From Caldisericia bacterium (GTDB taxonomy: Bacteria > Caldisericota > Caldisericia > UBA6126): a stretch of 58,933 nucleotides of DNA. The stretch lies in NCBI GenBank assembly GCA_035363255.1, contig DAOSES010000015.1, positions 1-58,933 on the forward strand, given 5' to 3'. The first letter of the stretch is position 1; the number at the start of each line of letters is the position of its first letter. The translations under genes were made by a program, and so were the position numbers. Below are positions 27,832 to 51,335 of this stretch, one piece after another. Under the pieces are notes generated by a model. It worked only from the letters and a program-made list of their open reading frames with translations, had not been told where the DNA came from and did no database searches.

Positions 27832-30018
27832 CTAAGGTGTAAAACGGATTAATATCTGGTTTTTGCTTGCATCCCATTCCACCTTAGCACCAAAGCCTTC
27901 ACTGATAAATCGAATGGGTACAAAGGTTCTGCTATTTTTAATTTCTGGGGGAACAGGTAAAACACAGGCAACATCATTGATGAAAGCAAGTTTTTCGCCA
28001 ATATCTAAGCGAATTTTGTTAGTTTTCAATTGTATGTAAATTCGACCCTTTCCAATGTTTTCCCATTTAATTTCAGCCTTAAAAGCTTCACTAATAAAAC
28101 GAAGTGGAACCATGGAACTCCCTTTGCTGATATAGGGAGGAGCATCCAATACAATTTCTTTGTCGTCAATGTAAGCATACGAGATGCCTATGAAAAGTTT
28201 TATGACAATTTCTGGTAAAGGGATAACTGAAACAATTATTGGTATTTCAAGTTTTCCAGAATTGGTGTTAACAATCAAAACTTCACGGTAATCTTTTAAT
28301 TCTTGATTTTTGGAATCGAATACAATTTTAAAATCATGGGTCTGCCCTTTTCTCAAGAAAAACTTCGGATTAAAAAGACGATGAGGAGTATTTTTACTTT
28401 TTAAGTCGGCACTTCCCTCAAGAATACCACCACCCGAATTTTGGATCTTAATAAATTCCTCAATCTTCTCTCCTGCAAAAACAGATATTCGAATATCGCG
28501 ATTCTGTCCTTCCTTTTTTATCCATTCTGCTTTTGGTGGTACAGCAATGATAGCTAAGCTAACTGGGATCTGAAATGTTTCATTTTTGGTGGAGATGGTT
28601 ACCTGAGTTTTGTAGTGTTTGGAAGTATTTTCAAGTTGTTTTCTGTTTACATAAAATTCCACTTTATCTCGATGATCTTTTGAAAGAGTTAGCGAAGAAC
28701 TTGACGCTTCAAGCCATGGATCTGCAACAACAATTTTCAACTCTTGAGTATCAGGCGAAAGATTTTCAATTTCAAGGTAAGCCATAGGAAAAACTTCTGT
28801 TTCGTCTAAATCGAATTCACCAAAATCAATATTTTCCTGATCCAGACTTAAGGCTGATTTAACCTCAACTGATACCTCAAAGGAATGAGAGCCTCCATCA
28901 GAAGTGATACTAATGCGACCATTATGGGTACCAGGAGGCATCAGCTTGGTATTTACCGTCAGATTGATTTCCTCCTCAGTGGAATCAAAGCTAGTTTTAC
29001 TCAGAGTCATCCAGCGCTGATTTGCACTTACTTTACCCTTGATTTTCCCTCGTACACTATTGCTGATAAAAAATTTCTCTGAGGGTCGATCGCCAATGAA
29101 ATTGCTTCCAAAGTCGATCATCTTGGTTTCACAATGTAAAACAGGGGTAGGCAAAATATCCATTTTAACCACAACGGATGCCGTACCCCCATTCGAGTCA
29201 ATCGTAATAGTTTCCTCGCTGTATCCATCTTTTTTACTCGATTTGTCAAGGCTAATAGCTACTTCAGTGATACCATACTCGGAAAGATGAACTTCTTCAG
29301 GATAAAATCCTAATGAATTCGAGGAAGATTTGATGCGCGCTTGTAGATCTCCTCCACCTTCGTTTATGATATTTAAGTTCCGTGTAGGAGAAGCATCGTG
29401 TTCAACTGTGCCAAAATCGATAAACTTTGGCTCAACCGAGAGTTTTGGATTTTTTGAGCTAGGACCTGCTTTGTATTTGCTAAGCATATCCCCTTCAGGC
29501 GATTCATCGATAAACACATCATAGGTATGAGACAACACAGCAAATTTGAACGAGAACTTATCATCGTCCTCATAAATATCATGCTTAGAGATTTGTATGA
29601 TACCAGTGCAATTATCTTTTTGAAAAAAAACTGGAGAATAATCACCTACTAAATATAAAGCAGAATCAAACACTCCAACGCTATATGATCCTTCAAACTC
29701 AATGATTAAAATCAAATAGTCTGTTTCTCTTACCGCATGACCAGCTCCTGTGCTAAAAAAGATTCCAATGGAACAGTCATTATTATTGAGATTCCAGTTG
29801 CCCCAGCTATCCAATCTAAAATAGATGTTGTCATCATCTGTTCTCGCATAAATGGATTTAATATCAATCTCGATATTACGATAAGCATCTTTTGGGTCTG
29901 ATATCTGAAGCATAAAGTCATTGCCCTCTACTACTGGCAAATTAGAACTAAAACTAAGCACAAACACAAAAAGTGCACATACGATTGCTAGAACAGACTT
30001 TCTCATCACACACCTCAC
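27832..30018 (-). CDS. Large secreted/surface protein with two C-terminal copper-amine-oxidase-N-terminal-like domains
   Basis: Signal peptide and a beta-rich body. The C-terminus carries a duplicated module VPLRFISEAFKAEIKWE / VPIRFISEGFGAKVEWD. Confidence 0.6.
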   Translation of the reverse strand: MRCVMRKSVLAIVCALFVFVLSFSSNLPVVEGNDFMLQISDPKDAYRNIEIDIKSIYARTDDDNIYFRLDSWGNWNLNNNDCSIGIFFSTGAGHAVRETDYLILIIEFEGSYSVGVFDSALYLVGDYSPVFFQKDNCTGIIQISKHDIYEDDDKFSFKFAVLSHTYDVFIDESPEGDMLSKYKAGPSSKNPKLSVEPKFIDFGTVEHDASPTRNLNIINEGGGDLQARIKSSSNSLGFYPEEVHLSEYGITEVAISLDKSSKKDGYSEETITIDSNGGTASVVVKMDILPTPVLHCETKMIDFGSNFIGDRPSEKFFISNSVRGKIKGKVSANQRWMTLSKTSFDSTEEEINLTVNTKLMPPGTHNGRISITSDGGSHSFEVSVEVKSALSLDQENIDFGEFDLDETEVFPMAYLEIENLSPDTQELKIVVADPWLEASSSSLTLSKDHRDKVEFYVNRKQLENTSKHYKTQVTISTKNETFQIPVSLAIIAVPPKAEWIKKEGQNRDIRISVFAGEKIEEFIKIQNSGGGILEGSADLKSKNTPHRLFNPKFFLRKGQTHDFKIVFDSKNQELKDYREVLIVNTNSGKLEIPIIVSVIPLPEIVIKLFIGISYAYIDDKEIVLDAPPYISKGSSMVPLRFISEAFKAEIKWENIGKGRIYIQLKTNKIRLDIGEKLAFINDVACVLPVPPEIKNSRTFVPIRFISEGFGAKVEWDASKNQILIRFTP

Positions 30019-30141
30019 GTAGTTTTGGGATAAGTCATTGCTGGCGAAAAGCTAAAGCTTAAGTATTCAACTTATCCACCATATTAGCGAAATCATGTAT
30101 GGTAGTATATTCAAACGCCTAAAAAATTTCAAGTGATTTTT

Positions 30142-31416
30142 TCAACAAGTAGCAAGTTCCTCCCAGGAAGTGGTAAAGCGATCTGAGAGATGTTTGCGAC
30201 GCATATCCCAGGCCTTTTCCTTTTGCACGCAGGCAGGACGAACTGTATGCTGACCCCAGCGCTGATTGATCTTTTCCATGGCTAAAAGCAGAGACTCGGG
30301 GGCTTGGGAAGTCAGGGTCTGATCTGACAAATCAAAAAGGGAGGGGGTAAGATATTCGCTGGATGAAATATCAAGCAGAATCACCCCGCTCTTGGTATAG
30401 TGGATGCCTGCACGGAAAATTTTGCTCAGTGCCTGAAAAGCCATGCGAATAAAAAGAAAGGGGTCTCTGGAAGGAATCGTATTTAAAACTGAAAAGTAGT
30501 TGGCGTAAGAATGGTGGGTGTCAAAGCGATTGCTTGTGATAAATACTCCTACTCCTCGCGCCGAAGCATTTTGGGATCTAAGCTTTTGAACAGCTTGAAG
30601 CACATGCTGACTGACTGCTTCTTTGAGCTCTTGTATTGTTTGCACAGGACGTCCAAAAGAAAGGGAACAGCATATTTCCTTGCAATTGAGCCTTTCATTG
30701 CCAAAAGAAAAACAGGAAAAACCTCGCAATTCCCAAGCAGTAGCAAGGCCCTTACTCGTCATTTTTTTGCGTATCCAAGTGTCATTAGCTCTGACAAGAT
30801 CAAGTGCTGTAACGATACCATGAAGCTGGAGCTGTTTGGAATATTGTCTGCCGATGCCCCATATGTTTTCGACTTGAGTTCCCGCCAGAGCTTTTTGAAT
30901 TTCGTTACTTTGCATGAGGCAGGAGACTCCATTTAGCTCAAGGTTTTTTTTGGCAATACGATTGGCTAATTTTGCCAGAGTTTTACTTGCAGAAATTCCT
31001 ACGGAAACAGGTATGCCTGTGTTTTTCCTAACTTCGGCACGCACACGATGTGCAAAGTTTTCAGTATCTGAAAGGTTTTGCGAAGGAAATCGCAAAAAGG
31101 CTTCATCAATGGAATATATTTCAAGCTCGTCAGAAAACTTGGATAAAACGTTCATAACTCGATCCGACAAGTCTCCGTATAAGGTATAATTGGAAGAACA
31201 TAGCTGAACTCCTTGACGAAGGATTTCGTGTTTATGCTTGAAGATAGGATCTCCCACCTTGATACCAAGAGCTTTCGCTTCTCTGGAGCAGGAGATAGCA
31301 CAACCATCATTATTGGAAAGCACTACTACTGGCTTGCCTTCGAGCGCAGGATTGAATACTCTCTCGCAAGAAACATAAAAATTGTTACAGTCAACCAAAG
31401 CGATAGAGCGTTTCAT
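30142..31416 (-). CDS. umuC: Y-family translesion DNA polymerase UmuC-like
   Basis: [18 protein letters not shown]...[10 protein letters not shown]. The ATG at 31416 overlaps the umuD stop as ATGA. The ORF tool extends it to 31458. Confidence 0.85.
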
Positions 31417-31736
31417 GGAAATCTCTTGAGGTGAATAACACAGGTAACTGTGCCCCAAATTTCAGTCGCAGTATCACTGCCTTGAAGCATGAGGGGTCGC
31501 TTGTATCTCATCAAACTGCGACGACCATCCACAATGGCAAGCACAAGATCGTAGTCTCTTGGGGTACAACTGCGGTCAATAATCAAGACATCATCTTTGT
31601 AAACTTCAAACTCTTCGTAAGAAGATCCTTTGACGCGCATGAAAAAGGTGGATTCAGGATGAGGAACCAGATACTCATTAAGATTCATATTTTTTTCTCG
31701 ATAGTACTGGGCTGGCGATGGAAACCCTGTAGTCAT
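31413..31736 (-). CDS. umuD: UmuD-prime-like S24 peptidase-fold protein lacking the N-terminal arm
   Basis: It starts [12 protein letters not shown], matching E. coli UmuD from Gly25 onward (CG|FPSPA). A Ser (VKGSS) and a Lys (RYK) are retained. Confidence 0.7.
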
Positions 31737-31901
31737 GGTAGCACCTCCGTTGCATGATAGAAATTTATATTTACCTTCATGTTACTATTCATAGCAATTT
31801 ATTCATACATGTCAAGTATTCTTATATGAATTTCATTATTGCAATAAAATCATATTGCATTATACTGCTTACCGTAAACAAAAAAAACAAAGGAGATAAA
31901 A

Positions 31902-32549
31902 ATGATTTTTGCAAACTGGTTACAAGAGAAACTAGATGCCAAAAAACTTACGCAAATTGAGCTGGCAATGATGAGCGGTATCTCCCAATCTACTATATCG
32001 CGGTGGATACATGGAGAGCGTGAGCCTGATATCAACAAACTAAAAAAAATAGCTCAGGCGCTGGACCTTAGCGAAAAAGAAGTATTGGTGGCCTGCGGTA
32101 TCATCGCCCAGGATTTCTTTTCAGTAGAAGAAAACATGGCCACCATACCCATTCTTGCAGCATCGATTCCTTGTGGTGTTCCGTCATCTGAACTATCTTC
32201 CTATGTGACTGGCTACGAAAAGCTCAGTCATTCCTTCTTTTATTCTTGCGCTAAAGGCATTCAAAGCGACAATCTGCGTCTTTTTATTGTCAGAGCGAAA
32301 GGTGACTCCATGATAGGCAAAGGAATCATTGAAGGCAATATGGTTATCTTTTCCCCTGATCTGGAAGTTAAAAACGGTGATATCGCTGTAGTAGAGCTCC
32401 CAGAGCATGGCATGTGCATAAAAGAAGTGCTCTTTCAGGATCAAGCCACCATCCTCAAATCTGCCAATCCTGCTTATGATCCCATTGTAATCATTGCACA
32501 GCCTGTACGCATTGTAGGCAAGGTTTTGATGCATATCGGATATTTATAG
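31902..32549 (+). CDS. LexA/CI-like repressor: XRE-type HTH + S24 autopeptidase
   Basis: HTH LTQIELAMMSGISQSTISRWIHGE, a putative cleavage site VACG, Ser in AKGDSM and Lys in CIKEV. It is divergent from umuDC. Confidence 0.8.
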   Translation: MIFANWLQEKLDAKKLTQIELAMMSGISQSTISRWIHGEREPDINKLKKIAQALDLSEKEVLVACGIIAQDFFSVEENMATIPILAASIPCGVPSSELSSYVTGYEKLSHSFFYSCAKGIQSDNLRLFIVRAKGDSMIGKGIIEGNMVIFSPDLEVKNGDIAVVELPEHGMCIKEVLFQDQATILKSANPAYDPIVIIAQPVRIVGKVLMHIGYL

Positions 32550-32558
32550 GAGGAAGCC

Positions 32559-33641
32559 ATGCAAACCATCTCACAGGCAAAAATCACTGAAGTGCAATGG
32601 CTTGACGATCAACAGCTCGTAGCTATCGATCATCCTGACCTATATCCTGGTGGAGGAGGCCAGCTTCCCGACAAAGCTACGATCACAACTTCCATAGGAA
32701 GCTTTCCCATTCACGAGACCATTTTTGTAGGCGAAAAGCACTTTTGGAAAATAGCCTCTCCCGTTAAACTGGGCCTTGAAGATATTACCATCCATATCGA
32801 TCCTCTATGGCGTCTTGAGTTGAGTCAACAGCATACTGCTCAGCATATTCTTTCTGCTCATGCCAAAAAACTCTATGATTGGGAAAGCACTGGTTTTACT
32901 ATCTTTGCAGAAAACTCTAAAATAGAGTTTTTGACAGAAGTTGACCCTGTGGATGCTTGCGAAAAGCTTGAAAATGCTGTTCTTGATAGCATCACTCACG
33001 ACTTACCTGTCTCCATCCACCAGGCTGAATCCACCCAGGGCCTTCGTAAAGGTCAGGATTATGAACATTTACGTGTTGTTGAAATTGAAGGTCTTGATCG
33101 TTGTGGTTGTGGCGGAACTCATGTTTCCAAAAGTTCGCATATTGGAGCTTTTTCTATCTTAAAGTGGGAACGTAAAAATAAGGCTTCGATTCGTATTACT
33201 TTTGCTGCAGGCTTACGCCTGGGAAAGCTTGCCAAAAAATATACTACCTGGGAATACGAGCTTCGCAAAAAACTAACAGGAGAAGTAGAGGAGCGAATCG
33301 ATGACCTTCTTACTCAAACTCAACAACAAAGTAAAAACGAAAAAAAGTGGCTTCATATTCTGTCCGAACATCTTCCCATCACTTCCCACTGGACAGTGAT
33401 GAGAGATCTTCCTGTTCAAATGGATGCTATACGCTATTTGGCAAACGTGATTCACCAGGGACGGGGAAACGCTCTTTTGATTTCCGAGGACAAACAATTT
33501 ATCATTGCTGGTCCAAACGCTGAAAAGTTAATGCAAGTCTTGCGCTCCCACGGTGCTAAAGGAGGTGGGAAAAACCTCATCAATGGCACCATGGACTCCA
33601 CTCTATCCCAACAGGTAGAAAAACTTATCGAAAAGCTTTAA
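32559..33641 (+). CDS. AlaX-L type alanyl-tRNA editing protein (tRNA_SAD + DHHA1-like)
   Basis: Zinc motifs HTAQHILSAH and CGCGGTHV, with a Gly-rich C-terminal module (AKGGGKNLINGTM). Confidence 0.75.
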   Translation: MQTISQAKITEVQWLDDQQLVAIDHPDLYPGGGGQLPDKATITTSIGSFPIHETIFVGEKHFWKIASPVKLGLEDITIHIDPLWRLELSQQHTAQHILSAHAKKLYDWESTGFTIFAENSKIEFLTEVDPVDACEKLENAVLDSITHDLPVSIHQAESTQGLRKGQDYEHLRVVEIEGLDRCGCGGTHVSKSSHIGAFSILKWERKNKASIRITFAAGLRLGKLAKKYTTWEYELRKKLTGEVEERIDDLLTQTQQQSKNEKKWLHILSEHLPITSHWTVMRDLPVQMDAIRYLANVIHQGRGNALLISEDKQFIIAGPNAEKLMQVLRSHGAKGGGKNLINGTMDSTLSQQVEKLIEKL

Positions 33642-36567
33642 CAATTGAGCCGAACAACTCCCCATGATCCTTAAGTTTTTTTTCATTTCCCAGCACACAA
33701 TAGCAATTCATCGAAGTGCAAGCCGTGATATACTCGCTTAAGGTGTGAATATCCTTTAAAGAGACTCTCAGTATCTCGTCTCGCTCTTGCTGGATCTCTT
33801 CTTGAGTTACTCCACTGAGATATTGAATATCAGATTTTTGACCTATCATCGATGGGGTAAGAGGGGCATCGAGTTGACTCATGGTGCCGATTAAATATTT
33901 GCGCAATTCTCTTTCGCTCAAATCAATTTTGGATAGGTAAGCGCCTAGGTGGTCATAGCTTGCCAAAGTTTCTTTGAGTTTGGGATCACGATATGACCCA
34001 AGAACAACTCTGCCATTGCGTGATATTTTTATGAACGCTCCGTACGCTCCACCCATAATACGAATTCGGTTCCAGAGATAATCAAGACTGGCAAGAGACT
34101 CTAATACTTGCAAGGCTCCATGGTAGGGAAATCGTAGTTTTTTGTAGTTATACCCTTTCAGAACGTACTGAACTTTACTGGAAGTGCTAATACCCTCATT
34201 TCTTATTTCTTCGCAAAAAGGATAAACAATGCTTTCAAGAGCTGAGTTGCGTGGAATATGGTGCATCAAGGTGGAAACAAGAGTTTTGGCTTTTTCAAGA
34301 TCCTCCCTGGGACCAGTTATGCTATAGGTCATTTCCCTGGGGCTGAAGATTTTTCCACATACTTCTTTCAGGGAAGCTATAAACACTTCTGGAGCTTGAT
34401 TCCATAAGTGTTCCTGGTCTAACAAAAAGTGGTAAAAACTAAGTCCGTTCATTTCTTCGTTCCAGCTTCCGGAGGGAGAAAAGTAGGAGTTTAGTCTTTT
34501 TGCAGCTAATACGTGACCTTGGTGGTGAATGCTCGATTCATATCCTGATTTCATCTCACACATCAGCTCTTTGATGCGTTTTGAATCTTCGAGAAGAGTG
34601 TGAAATAGTATCTGCTCCAAGAGTTCAAGTAGCTTGGGAAAAGAAGGAGTGAGTGATTTTGCCTGCACGCACATAAATCGATCGAATTGGGCTATGTCAT
34701 GATAGTTATTGATAGCCATAGTGTTGATGCTTAAACCACCAGTATAAAGAAAAAGTTGATTGGAAAGATCGCTATATGAATATTGAACTGTGCTCATTTT
34801 GCTAAGTAAATTTGATAAGATGGTGGCATACGGAAGCTCTTTTTGAGAAAGGGTGGAAAGGTCAAAATACAGATTCAAGTATAGTATGTTCTGTGTGGAG
34901 ATTGGATGGAGCAGTAAAGTATCTTCCTTAACTTTTTCTATCTCGAGGGGCAAAACTTCACTTTGAGCAAGAATGTCTTCTCTTTTCAAGAGAGGTATAC
35001 TGTTTAATCCTTCAATAGTATCCGGGGTCTCTTGCATCATTTTCAGCTTTTTGGTCTCTTCGATCCATGCTTCAATTTCATTTTCATTTGCTTCATTCTT
35101 TATCTTTTGTAATTTTTCCTTCAGTTTTGCTTCGTTCATTTCCTCCAGACCTTTTTCAGGTACTATCATTACATCAGCAGAATGGGGATTTGTTAGAAGT
35201 AAATCTTTAATCATTTTTTCAAACAAAGCTTCCTTGGATTCCTTGCGAATAAGCTCAAGAGTTTTGTTAAAAGCTAGGTGTGTGCAGGGTTCACCATCAT
35301 AAAGCCAACTATCCATGATGCTTAAGCCATAAAACAAGCCTTTGGGGTATCCATGATAATCAGCTTCTCTGAGTTGAAACTCATGAATGTTGATGGAAGC
35401 CTGGACTAAATCCTGGTCAATACCATTTTCTACTAAATCTTGAAGTGTAGCTTGAATAACAGATATGAAAATCTCACGTTTCTCTGGTGAAGCATTTTTT
35501 GCAAGTACTCCCAAGACTGCTTGCTGAATGTTCAAATCTATAAAACCATCTATTTCTTCTGCAATATCAGCTTCAATAAGTGCTTTTTTTAATGGAGATG
35601 CTGGCGTGCCCAGTAGGATGTGTTCAAGGATATCAAGGCTCATATACTGAATTGGATCTGTGGTTCTTCCGCAAACAAAACTCAAGCTAAAATAAGCTTT
35701 TTGATCGCATTGCTCTTCTTGCCCAGCAGAGTAGGAGGCATTAGCACTGAGTCTTTTTTGAAAAGCACTTTGGAGAGGAATATTTTGAAAATCAGTTCTC
35801 TTAGAAAAAGCAGATAAGTACTCTTTATCGAGATAATCGAGCCACTCATGTATATCCACGTCTCCATAAAGATAAATAAAAGAATTACTGGGGTGATAGT
35901 ACTTTCGGTGTTCATTTAAAAAATGCTCATAACTAAGATGCGGGATATCATCAGGCTTTCCTCCCGACTCAAACCGATAAATGGTGTCGGGGAAGAGAGT
36001 CTGAGTGATCTTGTCAAAAAGAATGCTGTCGGGAGTGGAGTATGCTCCCTTCATTTCGTTGTAAACAATGCCCTGAATAGCTAAATCATCTTTAAGAGAA
36101 GAAATATCATAGTGCCAACCCTCCTGATGAAAAATGGAGGGATTAGTGTAAATATTGGGATACAAAACAGCGTCCAGATAAACATCAACCAGGTTTTTAA
36201 AATCTATCTTATTTTTACTTGCAACGGGATATATAGTTTTGTCTGGATAGGTCAATGCATTGAGAAAAGTATTTAACGAGCCTTTGGCAAGCTCTATGAA
36301 AGGCTCTTTAACAGGATACTTTCTTGAGCCACAAAGAACTGAATGTTCAAGGATATGAAAAACTCCACTATGATCGGTAGGAAGCGTTTTGAATGCAATG
36401 TAAAAAACTTTGTTATCGTCCTGATTTTTTAAAAAGATGCATTTTGCACCGCTGATTTTGTGTTCAAAGACACTTACATCGGAAGAAATTTCTTCAAGGT
36501 AGTGCTGATCTATTTTCTTGTAGGCTGCATTACAATTTTGATTTTCTTGATTCATAATTACTCCCAT
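33625..36567 (-). CDS. M16C-family (PreP/insulinase-like) zinc metallopeptidase
   Basis: Inverted zinc motif HILEHSVLCGSRKYP...E, and about 980 aa as in PreP-like proteins. Confidence 0.85.
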   Translation of the reverse strand: MGVIMNQENQNCNAAYKKIDQHYLEEISSDVSVFEHKISGAKCIFLKNQDDNKVFYIAFKTLPTDHSGVFHILEHSVLCGSRKYPVKEPFIELAKGSLNTFLNALTYPDKTIYPVASKNKIDFKNLVDVYLDAVLYPNIYTNPSIFHQEGWHYDISSLKDDLAIQGIVYNEMKGAYSTPDSILFDKITQTLFPDTIYRFESGGKPDDIPHLSYEHFLNEHRKYYHPSNSFIYLYGDVDIHEWLDYLDKEYLSAFSKRTDFQNIPLQSAFQKRLSANASYSAGQEEQCDQKAYFSLSFVCGRTTDPIQYMSLDILEHILLGTPASPLKKALIEADIAEEIDGFIDLNIQQAVLGVLAKNASPEKREIFISVIQATLQDLVENGIDQDLVQASINIHEFQLREADYHGYPKGLFYGLSIMDSWLYDGEPCTHLAFNKTLELIRKESKEALFEKMIKDLLLTNPHSADVMIVPEKGLEEMNEAKLKEKLQKIKNEANENEIEAWIEETKKLKMMQETPDTIEGLNSIPLLKREDILAQSEVLPLEIEKVKEDTLLLHPISTQNILYLNLYFDLSTLSQKELPYATILSNLLSKMSTVQYSYSDLSNQLFLYTGGLSINTMAINNYHDIAQFDRFMCVQAKSLTPSFPKLLELLEQILFHTLLEDSKRIKELMCEMKSGYESSIHHQGHVLAAKRLNSYFSPSGSWNEEMNGLSFYHFLLDQEHLWNQAPEVFIASLKEVCGKIFSPREMTYSITGPREDLEKAKTLVSTLMHHIPRNSALESIVYPFCEEIRNEGISTSSKVQYVLKGYNYKKLRFPYHGALQVLESLASLDYLWNRIRIMGGAYGAFIKISRNGRVVLGSYRDPKLKETLASYDHLGAYLSKIDLSERELRKYLIGTMSQLDAPLTPSMIGQKSDIQYLSGVTQEEIQQERDEILRVSLKDIHTLSEYITACTSMNCYCVLGNEKKLKDHGELFGSIVKAFR

Positions 36568-43270: not shown

Positions 43271-43636
43271 ATGACAGTTGACGAAATTATTGAAGCTGTA
43301 GGGGCTGAAATCCTTCAAGGTAAAGGAAGAACAGACCTAAACATTAATTACGCTTTTGCAGCAGATTTAATGAGTGATACTCTGTTTATTGTTGCTAGAG
43401 ACGATGAACCCATCTTGCTTATTACTGGTGTCACTAATCCATCGGTCGTTCGTACTGCAACAATTTTAGATATCCCCCTGGTGCTTATTGTTCGTGGTAA
43501 AAAGATCCCCCCTGAAACAATTCAGCTAGCTATTGACAACGAAATTATATTGCTTCTTACTTCAAAGATTATGTTCGATTCTTGTGGTTTACTATACGAA
43601 AGAGGCATGAAAGGTTGTCCATGGAGACTGAAGTGA
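43271..43636 (+). CDS. DRTGG-domain protein
   Basis: The pattern ...LMSDTLFIVARDDEPILLITGVTNPSVVRTA...IVRG resembles the DRTGG domain. Confidence 0.65.
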   Translation: MTVDEIIEAVGAEILQGKGRTDLNINYAFAADLMSDTLFIVARDDEPILLITGVTNPSVVRTATILDIPLVLIVRGKKIPPETIQLAIDNEIILLLTSKIMFDSCGLLYERGMKGCPWRLK

Positions 43637-44070
43637 TCAATAAACTTGATTTTTCTGTTGGAGCCTCAGATTACCCCAGCATTGGCTCAAGGGCTCTTGA
43701 AGTAAAAAAAAAGTTAAAAGATTTTTTTCCCACGGGCGATTATCTCAGACGCTTGGGGGTATGCATTTTTGAAGTTGAAGCTAACTTAGCCATACATACC
43801 AGCCAGGGTGGAACTCTTGAAATTATTGTTTTTAAAGATCGTGTTCGCATTATTGCATCCGATTCAGGTCCTGGTATAAAAGATCTTTCAAAGGCTCTCA
43901 CACCAGGTTTTTCCACTGCACCAGAGTCTGCCAGGCAACTTGGTTTTGGCGGAGGGGTTGGGATCAACAATGTGAAACGATTCGCTGATTACTTCTTCCT
44001 TACAAGCTCTAAGCAAGGTACAATTCTTTTATTTGAGGTGTGGAATGATGACGATAAAGCAGCTAACTGA
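43621..44070 (+). CDS. HATPase_c-family protein (anti-sigma-factor/Ser-Thr kinase-like, RsbW/SpoIIAB-type)
   Basis: N-box EANLAIHTSQGG and G-box DSGPGIKD...GFGGGVGI. Confidence 0.7.
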   Translation: METEVINKLDFSVGASDYPSIGSRALEVKKKLKDFFPTGDYLRRLGVCIFEVEANLAIHTSQGGTLEIIVFKDRVRIIASDSGPGIKDLSKALTPGFSTAPESARQLGFGGGVGINNVKRFADYFFLTSSKQGTILLFEVWNDDDKAAN

Positions 44071-44394: not shown

Positions 44395-44859
44395 ATGAGT
44401 GAGATTAATTATTCCCAAATTGACTTTGTGATCAAGCGCGAAGGATCTCAAGAGTCCTCTCTTATTCAGGTGCTAAATGGGACACAGGAAATTTTAGGAT
44501 TTCTCCCCAAAGAGGCTTTAGTTTATATTTCAGAAAAATTAAAAGTTCCCTTATCCCGAACTTATGGGATTGTCACTTTTTATAATTTTTTCAAAACTGA
44601 AAAAGATGCTGATCATGTCATAAGTATTTGCATGGGAACAGCCTGTTATGTCAAGGGTGCAAATGTTATTTTAAAAAAACTGGAAACTGAGTTAAATATT
44701 AAAAGTGGTCAAATCACTCCAGACAAGAAATTTTCAATTCGCGAAGTCCGATGCATTGGAGCATGCGGTATGGGTCCACTTATTTCAGTAGATGGAGTCG
44801 ATCTATATGGTCGAGTTCAAGTGGATATGATTCCCGAAATCCTGAACAAATACAGATGA
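44395..44859 (+). CDS. hydC: NuoE-like [2Fe-2S] hydrogenase subunit (HydC/HndA type)
   Basis: Thioredoxin-like 2Fe-2S motifs CMGTACYVKG and CIGACGMGP. Confidence 0.85.
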   Translation: MSEINYSQIDFVIKREGSQESSLIQVLNGTQEILGFLPKEALVYISEKLKVPLSRTYGIVTFYNFFKTEKDADHVISICMGTACYVKGANVILKKLETELNIKSGQITPDKKFSIREVRCIGACGMGPLISVDGVDLYGRVQVDMIPEILNKYR

Positions 44860-45404
44860 AAGAACTCTCCATGAACATTTTGGATATCTTGCACAATTCG
44901 GTGCATGCAAATCCAAAAAACATCTATCTCACAATCCTTGAAGATAGCTCAAAAGATCTACTTCAATTCACAGTCAAAGATGATGGTAAAGGTATGAGTC
45001 AGGAATATGCCTCCAAAGTTTTTGATCCTTTTACTACAAGCAGTTCTACCAAAAACGTAGGACTCGGATTGCCTTTTCTTAAGATTCAATGCGAAATGTG
45101 TAATGGATCTGCCCATTTGACAAGCAAAGAAGGCCTTGGTACAGAAGTTGAGTTCAGCTTTCAACTTTCTCATGTTGATCGCCCTCCCATGGGAGATTTG
45201 GCAGGTACTTTGACGATCATGTTCACTATGCACCATTACATTTCATTTCATTTCAAATATTGCAAAGACCATCAGTGTTTTGAGCTTAGTACTGATGAAC
45301 TTAAAAGTTTAATGCAAGATGTTCCTTTGCAACATCCAAAAGTTGCAAAAGGCATAGAAGACTATATTAATACAAATTTAACAGAATTACAGGGAGGTTA
45401 TTAA
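44856..45404 (+). CDS. HATPase_c-domain protein embedded in the hydrogenase operon
   Basis: NILDILHNSVHA...DDGKGM...GLGLPFLK. ATGA start/stop overlap with hydC. Confidence 0.7.
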   Translation: MKELSMNILDILHNSVHANPKNIYLTILEDSSKDLLQFTVKDDGKGMSQEYASKVFDPFTTSSSTKNVGLGLPFLKIQCEMCNGSAHLTSKEGLGTEVEFSFQLSHVDRPPMGDLAGTLTIMFTMHHYISFHFKYCKDHQCFELSTDELKSLMQDVPLQHPKVAKGIEDYINTNLTELQGGY

Positions 45405-45778
45405 TGGCAAAGATTAACTCATTGGAAGAACTCAGAAAACTTCGTGATCAGGCAAAAGAAACCATGACCGCACGAAGCGGAAGTGCAAAAGTTAAAATTT
45501 TTGCAAGCATGGGAACTGTTGGGATAGCAGGGGGAGCTCGTGAAGCTCTGAAAGCCATGATTGATGAGTTGGAAAAAAGAGACTTCCACGATGTTGAAAT
45601 TATTGAAAGCGGTTCCATGGGTTTGGATCGCGAAGAACCAGTCATTTCAGTCGAACGTGATGGATACATGACTACCTACGGTAGAGTTTCTCCCGATATG
45701 GCTCGTCAAATCGTTGCCCAGCACGTTATCAATGGACAAATTGTTAGCGAATGGGTGATTGCGAGGAACAAGAAATAA
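45404..45778 (+). CDS. Small HydD/HndB-like protein: thioredoxin-like ferredoxin fold with no cysteines
   Basis: It aligns to the N-terminal [2Fe-2S] domain of the following NuoF-like protein, with all four Cys positions replaced (ASMGTVGIAGGA, GSMGLDREEP). Confidence 0.6.
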   Translation: MAKINSLEELRKLRDQAKETMTARSGSAKVKIFASMGTVGIAGGAREALKAMIDELEKRDFHDVEIIESGSMGLDREEPVISVERDGYMTTYGRVSPDMARQIVAQHVINGQIVSEWVIARNKK

Positions 45779-47436
45779 TGAAAATATATCGGATTCATGC
45801 TCTAATATGCGCTGGTGGTCAATGCATCACTGCTGGCGGAGATAGTTTTGAGGAAGCATTAAAGCATGCTATTAAAGAAAAAGGGCTGGAAGACGAGATA
45901 CAAGTAGTGGAAACGGGCTGTATGGGAGCTTGTGAAAAGGGTCCCATGATGGTGGTATATCCTGAAGGAGTACTTTACATCCATCTTAAAGCGAGTGATG
46001 CGGAAGAAATTGTAAACGAGCATTTCTTAAAAGGACGTCCAATTCAGCGATTGATGTGGAAAGAAGCAGATGGAAACTTCCCCACTCTCGATCAGGTTCC
46101 ATTTTTTACTCACCAAACCAAAATTGTATTACGTAATTGCGGTCTAATTGATTCTGAAAGCATCGAAGAATATATTGCACAAGATGGTTATAGCGCTCTT
46201 GCAAAAGCTTTGTCCTCTATGACTCCTGCTGAAGTTGTCGATGAAATAAAAAAATCAGGTTTACGTGGTCGTGGAGGAGCTGGTTTTCCAACTGGAATCA
46301 AATGGGAATTAGCCTACAAACAAGATGATCCAGAAAAATATATCGTTACCAACGCTGATGAAGGTGACCCTGGAGCATATATGGATCGTTCATTGCTTGA
46401 AGGAGATCCGCATACTGTAATTGAAGGTATGGCTATTGCCGCTTATGCTATCGGAGCTTCTAAAGGATTTATTTATTGTCGCGCAGAATATCCAATTGCT
46501 ATTAAACGTCTTCAAATTGCCATTAAAAAGGCAAAACAGGCTGGTTTGTTAGGAAAAAATATCCTTGCATCTGATTTTTCCTTTGATCTTGAAATTCGAA
46601 TGGGTGCAGGAGCTTTTGTTTGTGGTGAAGAAACTGCTCTTCTCAATTCAATCGAAGGCAAGCGGGGAGAACCACGGAAAAAACCCCCTTATCCCGCCCA
46701 AAAAGGCTTATTTGGCAAACCTACTGTGATTAATAACGTTGAGACTTTTGCCAATGTCCCATTTATTATTTTGGAAGGGGCTGAGAAATTTCGCAGAATC
46801 GGTACTGAAACCAATCCTGGCACCAAAGTGTTTTCTCTTGCAGGAAAGGTTATCACTACTGGTTTGATAGAAGTACCCCTTGGGATTAGTCTTCGTAAAA
46901 TTATCTATGACATCGGTGGCGGCATCCCTGATGGCAAAAAATTCAAAGGTGCCCTTATGGGTGGACCCTCTGGTGGAGTTATACCTGCATCAAAATTGGA
47001 CACTCCCATCGATTATGAATCTTTAAATGAAATCGGCTCAATGATGGGTTCTGGTGGCTTGATTGTCATGGATGAAGACAGCTGTATGGTGGATATAGCC
47101 AAATTTTTCCTCAAATTTACCGTTGATGAAAGCTGTGGTAAATGCACTCCATGTCGCGAAGGTACACGTCAAATGCTCGAACTACTTGAGCAAATATCCT
47201 CAGGTAACGGAAAGATGTCCGATTTAGACAAACTTGAACGTCTTGCTGAGACCATTCGTATGACCTCGCTTTGTGGATTGGGTCAAAGCGCTCCTAATCC
47301 AGTTTTATCTACTATCCGATGGTTTAGAGATGAATACGAGGATCATATTAGAAATCATAAATGTACAGCCGATGTATGCAAAATGAAACCACACGATTTG
47401 GAGGTAAAGAAACGTGTCAAAAAAATCACTCATTGA
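45778..47436 (+). CDS. hydB: NuoF-like NADH-binding hydrogenase subunit HydB, with an N-terminal thioredoxin-like [2Fe-2S] domain
   Basis: CAGGQC...CMGAC, FMN/NADH motifs GLRGRGGAGFPTGIKW, N3 cluster ESCGKCTPCREG...C. There is no C-terminal 2x[4Fe-4S] domain. Confidence 0.85.
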   Translation: MKIYRIHALICAGGQCITAGGDSFEEALKHAIKEKGLEDEIQVVETGCMGACEKGPMMVVYPEGVLYIHLKASDAEEIVNEHFLKGRPIQRLMWKEADGNFPTLDQVPFFTHQTKIVLRNCGLIDSESIEEYIAQDGYSALAKALSSMTPAEVVDEIKKSGLRGRGGAGFPTGIKWELAYKQDDPEKYIVTNADEGDPGAYMDRSLLEGDPHTVIEGMAIAAYAIGASKGFIYCRAEYPIAIKRLQIAIKKAKQAGLLGKNILASDFSFDLEIRMGAGAFVCGEETALLNSIEGKRGEPRKKPPYPAQKGLFGKPTVINNVETFANVPFIILEGAEKFRRIGTETNPGTKVFSLAGKVITTGLIEVPLGISLRKIIYDIGGGIPDGKKFKGALMGGPSGGVIPASKLDTPIDYESLNEIGSMMGSGGLIVMDEDSCMVDIAKFFLKFTVDESCGKCTPCREGTRQMLELLEQISSGNGKMSDLDKLERLAETIRMTSLCGLGQSAPNPVLSTIRWFRDEYEDHIRNHKCTADVCKMKPHDLEVKKRVKKITH

Positions 47437-47842
47437 AAAGCTGCTTGACCTTCAGGATTCTCAAAAAAATACGAATCATCTCCCAAAAAAACAATTAGTT
47501 GAAATATCGAAAGAATGTCAAACTCCTCTTGCTGAAACTTATGGCGTTGCTACTTTTTATACCATGTTTTCAGTCGAACCCCGAGGAAGACATATCATTC
47601 GTATTTGCGAAAATCAGTCATGTCATATGGCTGAAGCACTTAGTGTAGTTGAATCACTTAAAAATCATCTCAATATTGAATTTGGAGAAACTACTGCCGA
47701 TGGCCTGTTTACCCTCGAGCATAGCAGTTGCCTTGGTATGTGTTCGATAGCTCCATGTATGATGATCGATGATCATCCCTACGGGAACCTTACACCCTCC
47801 AAAATTGTTGACATCATCAACAAAATTAAGGCAGGTGAATAA
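47414..47842 (+). CDS. Second NuoE-like [2Fe-2S] subunit
   Basis: CENQSCHMAE...CLGMCSIAPC. GTG start with GGAGG RBS. Confidence 0.8.
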   Translation: MSKKSLIEKLLDLQDSQKNTNHLPKKQLVEISKECQTPLAETYGVATFYTMFSVEPRGRHIIRICENQSCHMAEALSVVESLKNHLNIEFGETTADGLFTLEHSSCLGMCSIAPCMMIDDHPYGNLTPSKIVDIINKIKAGE

Positions 47843-47845
47843 TTT

Positions 47846-49516
47846 ATGAAGTTTTATAGAACACATGTATTGATTGCCAGTGATGCAAAAAGCCTGGTAC
47901 TTGGAGCAAAAAGCATTCAGGATTTGTTAATTTCTGCCTTAAAAAAATACAAACTGGAAGACGAAGTTAAGGTTATTCCAACGGGTAGCCTTGGTTTTGA
48001 AGAAACTGGTGTAGCCATCATGGTATATCCTGAAGGCATCATTTATGCACCTGTAAATCATCAAAATATTGAAGAAATTGTAGTCGAACACTTCCTCAAA
48101 GGCAGAGTTGTCAATAGTCTGAAAAAGCTACCAAAAATTTCCAACATCTCTGCTGGTTCCCTTGAAAATCAAGCAATTTTAGATGTGCAACAAAGAGTAG
48201 TCTTGGAAAATGTCGGTATTATCGATCCTGAAAACATCATGGAATACATAGCCAGAGAAGGCTATTCTGCAATTGAAAAAGCAATATTTAGCCTAAAACC
48301 AGAAAATGTGATTGAAGAACTTAAAATTTCTGAACTTCGTGGAAGAGGTGGTGCTGGCTTTCCCACAGGCTTAAAATGGGACTTTACGCGTAAAGCTATT
48401 GGAGACAAAAAATACGTTATTTGCAATGCAGATGAAGGCGAGCCTGGTACATTCAAAGATCGTGAAATCATGGAAGGAGACCCCCACAAACTCATTGAAG
48501 GGATGATGCTTGCTGGATACGCCACGGGAGCAGACTACGGATATATCTATATCCGCGGAGAGTATGCTTTATCCATAAAAAGACTTGAAAAAGCTATCGC
48601 AGATGCAAGAGAATACGGGCTTCTCGGTAAAAATATCTTAAATAGCCAGTTTAGCTTTGACTTGGAAGTTTATAAAGGCGCTGGAGCCTATGTTTGCGGG
48701 GAAGAAACCGCACTAATCGAATCAATTGAAGGCAAACGTGGCGAACCACGAAAAAAACCCCCTTACCCCCCTACCTCAGGTTTATGGGGAAAGCCTACAG
48801 TAGTCAACAACGTGGAAACTCTTGCAAATATCCCTTCCATCATAAGGAATGGTGGATTCTGGTACAAAGGGATTGGAGTTGAAGGTTCCCGCGGGACTAA
48901 GCTTTTCAGTCTAATGGGAGATTTAAAATGGAAAGGAGTGGTTGAAATTCCTTTTGGCACCCACCTTTCCAACATTATTAGCAATCTTGGCTTGGGAATA
49001 AGCAACGGCAAATCACTCAAAGGAGTCATCCTTGGAGGATCATCGGGCTTTTTAATCAAACCCGACGAGCTTGAAACTCCAGTAGATTTTCACTCCCTTG
49101 CTCAAATAGAAGCTGGTCCAGGCTCTGGATCTATTGTAGCAATGGATGAACATCGTTGTATCGTGGATATGATAAAAAATATTGCTCAATTTTTTGAGCA
49201 TGAAAGCTGTGGAAAATGCACACCATGTCGAAATGGCACGAATCAGATAGTAGCAATACTTGAACGTATCTCCTCAGGTGATGGCAAACTTGAAGACCTG
49301 CGTAATCTTGAAACACTTGGAAACACGATGGCTCAGGCTTCCTTCTGTCCTCTGGGGCAAACTGCTCCAAACATCATGATTCAAGCTATAAAAAAATACC
49401 GTAGTGAGTTTGAAGCTCATATCATCGATAAAAAATGTCCAGCTAATGTTTGCCGTTTCTATGAAGACACTTTAATAAAACAAAACAACAATCCAAGGGA
49501 GGTTGAAAATGAATGA
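47846..49516 (+). CDS. Second NuoF-like subunit, whose N-terminal thioredoxin-like domain lacks the Cys ligands
   Basis: ELRGRGGAGFPTGLKW and CGKCTPCRNG are conserved. The N-terminus reads LIASDAKSLVLGA / TGSLGFEETG where the paralog has CAGGQC / CMGAC. Confidence 0.8.
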   Translation: MKFYRTHVLIASDAKSLVLGAKSIQDLLISALKKYKLEDEVKVIPTGSLGFEETGVAIMVYPEGIIYAPVNHQNIEEIVVEHFLKGRVVNSLKKLPKISNISAGSLENQAILDVQQRVVLENVGIIDPENIMEYIAREGYSAIEKAIFSLKPENVIEELKISELRGRGGAGFPTGLKWDFTRKAIGDKKYVICNADEGEPGTFKDREIMEGDPHKLIEGMMLAGYATGADYGYIYIRGEYALSIKRLEKAIADAREYGLLGKNILNSQFSFDLEVYKGAGAYVCGEETALIESIEGKRGEPRKKPPYPPTSGLWGKPTVVNNVETLANIPSIIRNGGFWYKGIGVEGSRGTKLFSLMGDLKWKGVVEIPFGTHLSNIISNLGLGISNGKSLKGVILGGSSGFLIKPDELETPVDFHSLAQIEAGPGSGSIVAMDEHRCIVDMIKNIAQFFEHESCGKCTPCRNGTNQIVAILERISSGDGKLEDLRNLETLGNTMAQASFCPLGQTAPNIMIQAIKKYRSEFEAHIIDKKCPANVCRFYEDTLIKQNNNPREVENE

Positions 49517-51335
49517 TCAAACTGTCAATATAACCATTAATGGGAAACCATTTAGCGTAGCTGCTCATAGCACCATTCTTGAAGCTTGTGAAAAAGCTCA
49601 TATCCATGTGCCCACTTTGTGCTACCTTAAAGAGATTTGCGAAGAGGGCTCATGTGGAATCTGTGTAGTCGAAGTTGCAAAAGCAAGAACATTGCAAAGA
49701 GCTTGTATTACTGAAGTTTTTGAAGGTATGGAAATTAAAACACATACTCCCCGAGTGCTTGAAGCAAGAAAAACGGTAGCTGAACTTATTCTTGCAAATC
49801 ATCCTAAAGACTGTCTTTCCTGCGATGCAAATGAATCTTGTGATTTACGTCAACTCACTTACGATTTAGGTATTTCCGAAGTACATTTTGAAAAAACTCG
49901 TGAAAATGATTTTGAACTCGATCTCACATCTCCTTCGTTTAAACGTGACATGAATAAATGCATCCTTTGCAAACGTTGTGTTGAAGTTTGCGAAAAAGTT
50001 CAGTCGGTATCAGTTATTGACACTGCCGGACGAGGCATGAAAAATCGAATAGCAACTTTTATGGATCGTGGTATTGGTGAATCCTATTGTATTAATTGCG
50101 GTCAATGCGTTTTGGTTTGCCCCACTGGCGCTCTTATTGAACAAAGTGAAGTTGATCTCGTTTGGAAGGCTTTGGCAGATCCCAAAAAGATTATCCTGGT
50201 TGAAACAGCTCCAGCAGTGCGCGTTGCTATTGGTGAAGAATTTGGTCTTCCTGCTGGATCCCTGGTTACCAAACAAATGGTTGCTGGTCTTCGTCGATTA
50301 GGTTTCACGAAAGTATTTGATACCAATTTCTCTGCCGATTTAACCATTATGGAAGAAGGTTATGAGCTTATAGGTCGCATTAAAAAGGCACTAGGTCAAG
50401 ACAAAGGTGAATACCACGGTCCCACCAATCTTCCAATGATCACCTCTTGCTCTCCTGGTTGGATCAAATTTGCTGAACACTTTTTCCCTGGAGTTTTAGA
50501 TCATCTATCAACTTGCAAGTCACCTCAACAAATGTTTGGTGCTGTAGCAAAAACATACTACGCTGAAAAGTTAAAAGTTGATCCCAGAGATATTGTAGTC
50601 GTTTCTATCATGCCTTGTGTTGCAAAAAAATATGAAGCAAAACGCCCTGAAATGAATAGTGCTTTCCATTATTGGAAAAACAAACTTCATCTTACTGATG
50701 ATCAATCTTTCCAGGATGTTGACCATGTACTTACCACTCGTGAAGCTGCCCGTATGATGAAACAAGCAGGTATTTTCCTTCCAGATCTACCTAATGAAGA
50801 GTTTGATCAGCCTCTAGGTTCATCTACCGGTGCTGCTGTGATATTCGGTTCATCGGGCGGAGTTATGGAAGCTGCAATCCGTACTGCTTATGAAGTTATC
50901 ACAGAGTCTCCTCTGCCTAAGCTTGATTTCGAAGAAGTCCGTGGCTTGCAGGGCATTAAAAGCGCTACTATCGATATTCAAGGGCTGGGACTTAAGATTG
51001 CTGTTGCCAATGGCCTTGGAAATGCTCGAGTTCTTCTTGAACAAGTTGCCAAAGGCGAATCACCCTATCATTTCATCGAAGTAATGGCATGTCCAGGTGG
51101 TTGTATCGGTGGAGGTGGACAACCCTATCCCACTAATACCGAAGTAAGAGAAAAACGTATGAAAGCAATCTATTGTGAAGATTGTAATTTACCCATACGT
51201 AAATCCCACGAAAATCCATCTATTACTGACATTTACAAAGATTTTCTTGGACAGCCCAATGGTGAAAAATCCCACCATCTATTACATACCTCCTACACTC
51301 AACGCGACATCTACGAGCAAGAAAAAGAAAGATAA
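49509..51335 (+). CDS. hydA: [FeFe] hydrogenase catalytic subunit HydA (M3-type: 2Fe-2S + His-ligated 4Fe-4S + 2x4Fe-4S + H-domain + C-terminal SSU-like tail)
   Basis: L2 motif MPCVAKKYEA, L3 motif EVMACPGGCIGGGGQP, L1 reads TSCSPGW. N-terminal cluster motifs CYLKEICEEGSCGIC, HPKDCLSCDANESC, CILCKRCVEVC, CINCGQCVLVCP. RBS GGGAGG lies 8 nt before the ATG. Confidence 0.9.
   Translation: MNDQTVNITINGKPFSVAAHSTILEACEKAHIHVPTLCYLKEICEEGSCGICVVEVAKARTLQRACITEVFEGMEIKTHTPRVLEARKTVAELILANHPKDCLSCDANESCDLRQLTYDLGISEVHFEKTRENDFELDLTSPSFKRDMNKCILCKRCVEVCEKVQSVSVIDTAGRGMKNRIATFMDRGIGESYCINCGQCVLVCPTGALIEQSEVDLVWKALADPKKIILVETAPAVRVAIGEEFGLPAGSLVTKQMVAGLRRLGFTKVFDTNFSADLTIMEEGYELIGRIKKALGQDKGEYHGPTNLPMITSCSPGWIKFAEHFFPGVLDHLSTCKSPQQMFGAVAKTYYAEKLKVDPRDIVVVSIMPCVAKKYEAKRPEMNSAFHYWKNKLHLTDDQSFQDVDHVLTTREAARMMKQAGIFLPDLPNEEFDQPLGSSTGAAVIFGSSGGVMEAAIRTAYEVITESPLPKLDFEEVRGLQGIKSATIDIQGLGLKIAVANGLGNARVLLEQVAKGESPYHFIEVMACPGGCIGGGGQPYPTNTEVREKRMKAIYCEDCNLPIRKSHENPSITDIYKDFLGQPNGEKSHHLLHTSYTQRDIYEQEKER

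Follow-up and report, generated by a model that had tools for sequence, protein, structure and literature searches.

A predicted repressor-gated Pol V cassette with a natively truncated UmuD′ in Caldisericia

A conserved three-gene cassette

We found a three-gene cassette in a 58,933-nucleotide contig of a Caldisericia bacterium (DAOSES010000015.1, assembly GCA_035363255.1). This whole stretch, about 59 kb long, is called the window below. A repressor gene lies on the plus strand, divergent from a umuD′-umuC operon on the minus strand, and 165 bp separate the divergent units, as an initial annotation of the sequence had given. That annotation placed the cassette at 31413-32549, which covers umuD′ and the repressor but leaves out umuC (30142-31416), the catalytic part. 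It is likely that the cassette is a self-contained, RecA-sensed and repressor-gated DNA polymerase V (Pol V) module that has no UmuD processing step. This reading builds on gene structures, residue-level homology, conservation of the cleavage site and catalytic dyad, purifying selection, synteny and conserved promoter elements, all of which were established directly.

The cassette is chromosomal, conserved across Caldisericia and under purifying selection. We retrieved it whole from Logan, NCBI, JGI and ENA assemblies, in copies that range from near-identical to more distant. The arrangement of a repressor gene divergent from umuD′-umuC occurs in at least 12 loci, with repressor identities of 38-94%, and in at least three different neighbourhoods. 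The hisS...PreP synteny around the cassette is identical in relatives whose proteins are only 57-67% identical, and more distant lineages carry the cassette in other neighbourhoods. The source names of near-identical repressor proteins point to Caldisericia as the origin of the window. Within Caldisericia, the repressor gene is always paired with umuD′C, and the pair moves together between neighbourhoods.

The short UmuD′-like protein

The umuD′ gene (31413-31736, minus strand) encodes a protein of 107 amino acids, predicted to be a natively truncated and catalytically degenerate accessory subunit. The protein matches the Pfam family Peptidase_S24 (PF00717) with an E value of 4.7e-9. In a phmmer search of PDB sequences, residues 3-79 pair without gaps with residues 24-100 of E. 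coli UmuD (E value 1.8e-13), and the entries 8gmt_B, 1umu and 1i4v match at E values of about 1e-13. In this alignment, Gly4 is equivalent to Gly25 of E. coli UmuD, Ser39 to Ser60 and Met76 to Lys97. Gly25 of E. coli UmuD is the first residue of UmuD′, and the window protein begins MTT-G4.

According to the initial annotation, the native product of this umuD homologue begins only at the UmuD′ boundary, and our results bear this out. Alignments with E. coli UmuD and phage P1 HumD show a start at that boundary, and the N-terminal arm with its Cys/Ala-Gly autocleavage site is absent from the window protein. The in-frame stop that had been reported upstream of the ATG is present at 31782-31784, 15 codons 5′ of the start, and the codons in between include no ATG, GTG or TTG. 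We looked for an upstream extension that would encode an arm and found none, so the truncation is not an artefact of open reading frame (ORF) calling. A strong Shine-Dalgarno (SD) sequence, GGAGGTG (31742-31748, minus strand), is located 6 nt before the ATG, and an SD sequence of the GGAGG type occurs at the equivalent place in L009, L018 and L022.

The description of the protein as an arm-less UmuD′ was correct for the arm, but overlooked two further losses. First, the Ser60/Lys97 dyad is incomplete: Ser39 is kept, but the Lys is replaced by Met76. Second, a multiple alignment reveals that a hairpin of ~14 residues with the motif L-x-P-x-N-x-x-Y-x-P-I is deleted relative to full-length UmuDs. 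Because the catalytic Lys (in relatives, the Ser too) and this hairpin are gone, the window UmuD′ is predicted to be a dead S24 fold, and not merely an arm-less one. The AlphaFold model of the protein has a predicted local distance difference test (pLDDT) score of 74.7, with the loop at residues 83-87 below 50. The top Foldseek matches of this model are the UmuD′ structures 1ay9 and 1umu, followed by 8gmt.

The truncated form is kept in every Caldisericia cassette that we examined. In five Caldisericia lineages, the short UmuD′ starts with M-x(1-2)-[TS]-GFPSPA behind a ribosome site of the GGAGG type. The Ser60 position is occupied in these five by S, S, C, G and N, and the Lys97 position by M, M, I, T and M. 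Among relatives overall, C, G, N or R is found at the former position and M, I, T or G at the latter. Across lineages whose synonymous sites are saturated, neither the GFPSPA sequence nor the core strands vary. Relative to the closest relative, L023, the ratio of nonsynonymous to synonymous substitution rates (dN/dS) is 0.098 for umuD′, 0.076 for umuC and 0.025 for the repressor gene.

Short UmuD-like proteins also occur beyond this cassette. An exhaustive HMMER search yielded 4119 UmuD relatives. Among the best 150 of these, at least nine begin five or fewer residues from GFPSP, and the arm is no longer than 14 residues in about twenty others. The dyad and the hairpin are missing from most of the short relatives that we inspected. 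A mini-UmuD′ of 103 amino acids (family P0010) is common in gut Treponema/Spirochaetia, where it occurs in more than 160 contigs directly upstream of umuC; no S24 repressor is adjacent to this form.

We noticed three additional features among these relatives. In the Treponema/Spirochaetia locus L011, an inverted repeat, ACTATACA-N10-TGTATAGT (4961-4986), lies upstream of the mini-UmuD′ gene and overlaps a TATAAT sequence; it is a candidate SOS box for that lineage. An ORF of 36 amino acids precedes the mini-UmuD′ region in the same locus. Several of the best UmuD relatives (P0076-P0079, P0086, P0096 and others) are 249-301 amino acids long and contain two UmuD-like S24 stretches, so that they look like tandem or fused double UmuD proteins.

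The UmuC polymerase

The umuC gene (30142-31416, minus strand) encodes the predicted catalytic subunit, a Y-family polymerase of 424 amino acids counted from the ATG at 31416. Pfam identifies the domains IMS (8.1e-39), IMS_C (3.4e-13) and DUF4113 (5.3e-16), the last of which is the UmuC-type C-terminal tail. The best NCBIfam models for the window pair are the Pol V subunits UmuD and UmuC, and the UmuC model (PRK03609) is matched over positions 2-419 of 422. The umuD′ stop codon and the umuC start codon overlap as ATGA (31413-31416), and umuD′ is directly upstream of umuC in all related cassettes. The two genes are thus a predicted translationally coupled operon.

The predicted repressor

The divergent gene (31902-32549, plus strand) encodes a protein of 215 amino acids. 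As the initial annotation had stated, it combines an XRE-type helix-turn-helix (HTH) domain with an S24 domain (Pfam HTH_3, 1.1e-16; Peptidase_S24, 4.3e-19). We aligned it with 20 homologues of 38-94% identity. Three elements are invariant in these homologues: Cys91-Gly92 within the sequence IPCG (32172-32177), Ser136 (32307-32309) and Lys174 (32421-32423), all encoded on the plus strand. In HMMER alignments, the sequence IPCGVPS of the repressor pairs with VQCGFPS of UmuD, which places C91-G92 opposite C24-G25. The protein is therefore predicted to be a CI/XRE-type HTH domain fused to an intact, UmuD-like (Cys-Gly) autocleavage module.

A different cleavage position, VACG, had been proposed earlier. 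This string exists (residues 63-66), but it is located at the end of the HTH domain, and we reject it given that Cys65 varies among the 20 homologues while C91-G92 is invariant and aligned to C24-G25 of UmuD.

The repressor does not contain the winged-HTH domain of LexA. It reaches 47.2 bits against the LexA model TIGR00498, for which the cut-off is 110.95, and only its S24 part is matched, so the protein is not a canonical LexA. Similarity between its S24 domain and the adjacent UmuD′ is undetectable: BLASTP gives no alignment, and we rejected a recent duplication as the link between the two.

We made several side observations on repressor genes. The window repressor mRNA would have a leader of ~35 nt that contains GGAG. 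In L018 (3941-3971), L025 and L026, the repressor ATG follows a conserved TATACT -10 element by ~7 nt, which suggests a leaderless repressor mRNA in these loci. A sister group of repressors (L027, L029, L030 and L031; 52-53% identity) sits between a phosphoglucosamine-mutase-like (glmM-like) gene and lepB, and has promoters with repeats of the type TGACA-N2-TGTCA. In L030 (1247-3648), umuC is found upstream of the repressor gene and is preceded by a 67-amino-acid ORF (2533-2736) that is not UmuD′-like. No umuDC is present in the fetched flanks of L027 and L029 or in the 1.7-kb fragment of L031.

Promoters and candidate operators

The intergenic region is predicted to contain two promoters. That of the operon, P_umuD′C (31787-31815, minus strand), has the -35 element TTGACA (31815-31810) and the -10 element TATGAAT (31793-31787). 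Both elements are invariant in an alignment of the window with L009, L015 and L006; in L023 they are kept as well, and the spacer between them diverges. A promoter scan predicted the repressor promoter, P_rep (31839-31866, plus strand), with the -35 element TTGCAA, a 16-nt spacer and the -10 element TATACT. In the window, L016 and L009, the P_rep elements are at a fixed distance of 43-44 nt from the -35 element of P_umuD′C. The stretch 31737-31866 is ~88% identical to L023, whereas the synonymous sites of the flanking genes differ at 46-61%.

No match to the Cheo box or to the E. coli SOS box exists in the intergenic region, even when one mismatch is allowed, in agreement with the initial annotation. 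That annotation had suggested two other elements as operators, TATTGCAATA at 31837-31846 and ATATTGCATTAT at 31853-31864, and both occur at these positions. They are also unchanged in L023, where the bases between them vary (5-6 nt between 31847 and ATATTGCATTAT diverge). However, the pattern shared across lineages is a different, 14-bp repeat (see below), and TATTGCAATA is not special beyond chance. With up to one mismatch, it has 9 matches in the window, where 4.5 are expected, and this number is reached in 7 of 100 shuffles. A second exact copy (8447-8456) is inside a gene of the PmbA/TldD family, as would be expected if this 10-mer arises by chance in an AT-rich genome. Moreover, TATTGCAATA includes the -35 element of P_rep, TTGCAA, and because this hexamer is self-complementary, a short palindrome is expected here. 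We therefore dropped TATTGCAATA as sole evidence for an operator.

Short TTGCA elements are nevertheless enriched in the intergenic region: TTGCA/TGCAA occurs 4 times in 165 bp versus 0.66 expected, which is ~six-fold more and in the top ~1.2% of windows. The element ATATTGCATTAT, the second of the TTGCA type, is located in the P_rep spacer beside the -10 element. It has no equivalent at that position in L016 or L009, and is possibly a half-site or an auxiliary operator. A TTGCA-rich stretch at 45.2-45.4 kb was discarded, as it is coding sequence and contains no palindromes.

The sister lineages exhibit 14-bp inverted repeats with 5-nt arms and a 4-nt spacer, some of which are perfect palindromes, at three conserved positions: beside the umuD′ ribosome site, over the P_umuD′C -35 element and over the P_rep -35 element. 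The repeats are TTGCC-N4-GGCAA in L022, L037, L038 and L039, TTACC-N4-GGTAA in L042, ATGCA-N4-TGCAT in L018 and L026, and ATGAC-N4-GTCA[AT] in L030 and L031. Exact TTGCC-N4-GGCAA sequences occur in five of the 122 fetched loci, and four of these are the site beside the umuD′ ribosome site, here termed O1. The half-site centres of these repeats are ~9 bp apart, which would fit a dimer of CI/LexA-type HTH proteins better than a 10-bp palindrome with half-sites 5 bp apart.

Each of the three positions has a candidate operator in the window. The O1 candidate, TTGCA-TGAT-AGAAA (31750-31763), is in the umuD′ 5′ leader beside the SD sequence. Its offset from the SD sequence equals that of TTGCC-N4-GGCAA (L022, L037, L038, L039), TTACC-N4-GGTAA (L042) and ATACA-N4-TGCAT (L018). 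It lies within a 25-nt block that is identical in L023, and its right arm is degenerate. The O2 candidate, TTCAT-ACAT-GTCAA (31802-31815), lies over the P_umuD′C -35 element and has positional equivalents in L037 (TTGCC-ATCT-GTCAA) and in L018 and L026 (TTCAC-N4-GTCAA). It is weak, and the least secure of the three. The O3 candidate, TTTCA-TTAT-TGCAA (31831-31844), lies over the P_rep -35 element, overlaps TATTGCAATA and has one arm mismatch. The sequences at this position elsewhere are ATTCA-ATAT-TGCAT (L016), ATTCA-TTCT-TGCAT (L018), ATGCA-CTCT-TGCAT (L026) and ATGCC-GTCT-GGCAT (L022).

Proposed working of the cassette

From these observations we infer repression, autocleavage, the identity of the operators and polymerase activity, as follows. 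Two back-to-back sigma-70 promoters in the 165 bp would drive the repressor gene, probably together with an alaX-like gene downstream of it, and umuD′-umuC. In an undamaged cell, a repressor dimer would occupy the inverted repeats of the TTGCA type (5-nt arms, 4-nt spacer), which overlap the -35 element of P_rep (O3), the -35 element of P_umuD′C (O2) and the umuD′ leader beside the ribosome site (O1). Upon DNA damage, filaments of RecA on single-stranded DNA would stimulate the repressor to cleave itself between Cys91 and Gly92 by means of the Ser136/Lys174 dyad, and both promoters would be derepressed.

The UmuD-like product would then be made straight in the UmuD′ form; it has neither the arm nor the catalytic Lys, and the hairpin lining the S24 cleft is missing. 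It would pair with UmuC with no need for RecA-dependent processing. The delay known from E. coli, the UmuD2C “checkpoint” state and the degradation layer based on UmuD/UmuD′ heterodimers would all be absent. Control would be left to transcription, plus any activation of the polymerase itself by RecA/ATP. The initial annotation had similarly placed the control of the damage response at transcription rather than at UmuD processing. This appears reasonable.

Some observations weigh against the proposed working. Ser39 is kept in the window UmuD′, and a residual, non-proteolytic role of that site is possible. The mature N-terminus would be longer than that of E. coli UmuD′ by two residues (TT), placed ahead of GFPSP. 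Neither UmuD′ nor UmuC reaches its curated NCBIfam cut-off (92.4 bits versus 110 for the UmuD model NF007621; 354.9 bits versus 431 for PRK03609). Among the candidate operators, ATATTGCATTAT (the second TTGCAT element) does not fit the 5-4-5 model, the window sites are degenerate, with two arm mismatches each in O1 and O2, and a window-wide search for the 5-4-5 pattern (TTGCA-N4-TGCAA) found 4 sites versus 4.6 expected. In addition, the right arm of O3 is the -35 hexamer, so the conservation of O3 is confounded with promoter function. In view of the degenerate copies and the chance frequency, we put forward the 14-bp repeats of the window as hypothetical operators of the repressor.

Alternative explanations

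A possible but less likely explanation is that the HTH-S24 protein is the master SOS repressor, a LexA analogue, of Caldisericota and related phyla, and that umuD′C is merely adjacent to it. Homologues with 43-53% identity occur without neighbouring umuDC, for example in Caldatribacterium (L020/L021), L032-L035, L041 and the L027/L029/L031 group, so a role of the family as a general LexA analogue is conceivable. Members of the family are labelled “LexA family” or “repressor LexA” in source databases, CI-like S24 proteins in Bacteroidetes are able to run a full SOS regulon, and the repressor has no close relative in the viral contigs that we scanned, where the best match is 32% identical. However, a search of the 59-kb window for a regulon found no operator-like site upstream of genes other than those of the cassette. 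Apart from the cassette, the window has one classical SOS-associated gene, a radC homologue (4307-5059, minus strand). This gene lies within an operon that also contains rsgA and a deaminase gene, and no operator-like site was found upstream of radC. The constant pairing of the repressor with umuD′C in Caldisericia also favours a dedicated, repressor-gated module.

It is improbable that a prophage or integrative element carries the cassette as cargo, with the repressor as a CI-type immunity repressor and umuD′C as an accessory module that resembles HumD or rumAB. The repressor does have a CI/XRE-type architecture, phage P1 is the best-known source of a natively short UmuD′, UmuD-like genes are frequent in phages (63 phage records matched) and the neighbourhood of the cassette differs between lineages. 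The GC content is also slightly elevated over the cassette and the alaX-like gene (0.415-0.432 over 30001-34000 versus 0.37-0.39 in the flanks), but this is the only mark of recent acquisition that we observed. By contrast, the synteny described above persists in relatives of low protein identity, and genes for integrases, recombinases, capsid or tail proteins or conjugation are absent from the 59-kb window. The cassette is not flanked by direct repeats. The only structured RNAs or repeats found are two tRNAs, at least 18 kb from the cassette, and there are no tandem repeats. The relatives in viral contigs are distant for the short UmuD′ as well (44% identity or less). Given the lack of integrase and phage genes in the 59 kb and of close viral relatives, we reject a mobile-element origin. 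We also rejected an anti-phage defence system, as PADLOC returned generic HTH matches only.

Finally, it is very improbable that the short umuD gene is a decaying remnant, with UmuC acting alone or itself inactive: the losses of the arm, the Lys and the hairpin, the scores below curated cut-offs and the moderate structure prediction would be in line with a pseudogene in progress, but the dN/dS of about 0.1 led us to reject this, GFPSPA and the core strands stay invariant despite synonymous saturation, the strong SD sequence and the ATGA coupling to umuC are conserved, independent short forms lie directly upstream of umuC in Treponema/Spirochaetia, and HumD of P1 shows that such short proteins can function.

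Neighbouring genes

An alaX-like gene (tRNA_SAD domain; 32559-33641, plus strand) begins 9 nt past the repressor stop codon. It is not a core part of the cassette; the arrangement is shared with L009 and L016, and is not found in L018 or L022. Given the 9-nt gap, an SD sequence that overlaps the repressor stop codon and the lack of a terminator-like site between the two genes, the alaX-like gene is probably co-transcribed with the repressor gene and autoregulated alongside it.

On the other side, between umuC and a cation-efflux gene, a gene at 27832-30018 (minus strand) encodes a secreted-looking protein of 728 amino acids with Ig-like (HYDIN/Cep192/BACON-type) and copper amine oxidase N-terminal domains. 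It is not at that position in L009 or L016, and proteins that resemble it flank the cassette in L018.

The window further contains hisS, aspS, PreP, mobB, moaA, pyr genes, thyX, a hydrogenase cluster, amidases, smpB, lspA and divIVA. The hydrogenase cluster (44395-51335, plus strand) is of the HydABC-like [FeFe] type and has two NuoF-like paralogues (45751-47436 and 47846-49516). Small HATPase_c proteins are encoded in the same area (43582-44070 and 44751-45404). A protein of 607 amino acids (56839-58662, minus strand) has a LytB/IspH domain (residues 5-283) and an IPP transferase/MiaA domain (residues 330-570), and appears to be an IspH-MiaA fusion.

Significance of a hard-wired UmuD′

Natively truncated UmuD′ (P1 HumD) and the control of translesion synthesis (TLS) polymerases by CI-like S24 proteins (HdiR, FddR, Bacteroidetes) are each already known. 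What appears to be new is the combination of both in a chromosomal, coupled umuD′C operon of an uncultured phylum. A literature search, whose coverage was incomplete, returned no paper on SOS regulation in Caldisericota, nor one that describes a natively truncated UmuD′ encoded on a chromosome. To our knowledge, a hard-wired UmuD′ was previously documented solely for the orphan gene humD of phage P1.

In E. coli, Pol V is restrained by LexA repression, slow RecA-dependent cleavage of UmuD, proteolysis of UmuD and UmuD/UmuD′, and activation by RecA/ATP. A cellular lineage with a hard-wired UmuD′ and a decayed protease site would imply that the cleavage layer is dispensable given a tight local repressor. 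With this cassette, an uncultured phylum joins the clades that have a CI-like S24 repressor, and not a canonical LexA, beside a mutagenic polymerase. The names that annotation pipelines give to proteins of this kind are “autoproteolytic subunit”, “S24 family peptidase” or “repressor LexA”. For the short UmuD′ proteins, the first two of these names mislead, because these proteins are apparently not proteases.

We tentatively raise a broader, joint possibility. The mini-UmuD′ proteins (~100-110 amino acids, a GFPSPA start, dyad and hairpin lost) of Caldisericota, gut Treponema/Spirochaetia and other lineages might be a widespread, undescribed cellular class of Pol V subunits, and the Cys-Gly HTH-S24 proteins might at the same time be the LexA analogue of Caldisericota/Atribacterota. 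If both were true, there would be Pol V enzymes licensed purely by transcription, with RecA-mediated processing dispensed with, and LexA would have been replaced independently by a CI-like repressor in one more case.

Comparison with known systems

Like the E. coli Pol V system (UmuD/UmuD′-UmuC), the cassette combines an S24 fold and a GFPSPA N-terminus with overlapping umuD and umuC genes in one operon. In both, UmuC has the IMS, IMS_C and C-terminal DUF4113 domains, and an autocleavable repressor of the SOS type, here predicted, acts on the operon. Unlike E. coli UmuD, the window protein has no 24-residue arm, Cys-Gly site, Lys97 or ~14-residue hairpin, and we propose that no post-translational activation step exists. 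The repressor also differs, in that an XRE/CI HTH replaces the winged HTH of LexA and the CTGT-N8-ACAG box is absent.

The closest parallel to the truncation is HumD of phage P1 (and gp26 of N15). HumD likewise begins at the UmuD′ boundary (MGFPSPA), needs no RecA-mediated processing and does not have the canonical GDSM context of the serine. Its P1 record annotates it as complementing E. coli UmuD′. HumD is controlled transcriptionally by LexA, through an SOS (LexA) box that it has in common with a divergent gene, and the control proposed for the window is likewise transcriptional. However, HumD is a phage-borne orphan of 129 amino acids that uses the UmuC of its host and is under host LexA, whereas the window UmuD′ is chromosomal, has 107 amino acids, is coupled to its own umuC and lies beside its own non-LexA repressor. 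HumD also keeps the Lys97 equivalent and the hairpin region, neither of which the window UmuD′ has; to judge by these residues, the latter has gone further in shedding the protease machinery. With 60.1 bits against the HumD equivalog NF051876 (profile positions 2-77 of 129; cut-off 120), the window UmuD′ is not a HumD orthologue, and its truncation is probably independent of that of HumD.

UmuDAb of Acinetobacter is a non-LexA S24 protein that represses umuDC operons and cleaves itself after damage, as we propose for the window repressor. By contrast, UmuDAb represents a UmuD to which a DNA-binding N-terminus was added; in the window, the repressor and UmuD′ are separate genes whose products do not align by BLASTP.

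In its architecture, the window repressor resembles HdiR of Streptococcaceae, FddR of Francisella and the non-canonical LexA of Bacteroidetes. In all of these, an HTH of the CI/XRE type is joined to an S24 domain that contains a cleavage site and a Ser/Lys dyad. HdiR, FddR and the Bacteroidetes proteins regulate themselves and TLS polymerase genes, often as a divergently transcribed, self-contained unit with short palindromic operators, and the window repressor is likewise divergent from a TLS polymerase operon. Binding, cleavage and regulon were experimentally shown for these systems, whereas they are predictions for the window repressor. It belongs to another sequence family, found so far in Caldisericia, Atribacterota-like and related metagenome-assembled genomes. 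Its predicted cleavage site is Cys-Gly, as in UmuD, compared with Ala-Gly in the others. A final difference is that the operon that it is proposed to control carries a UmuD′ that is natively in the processed form.

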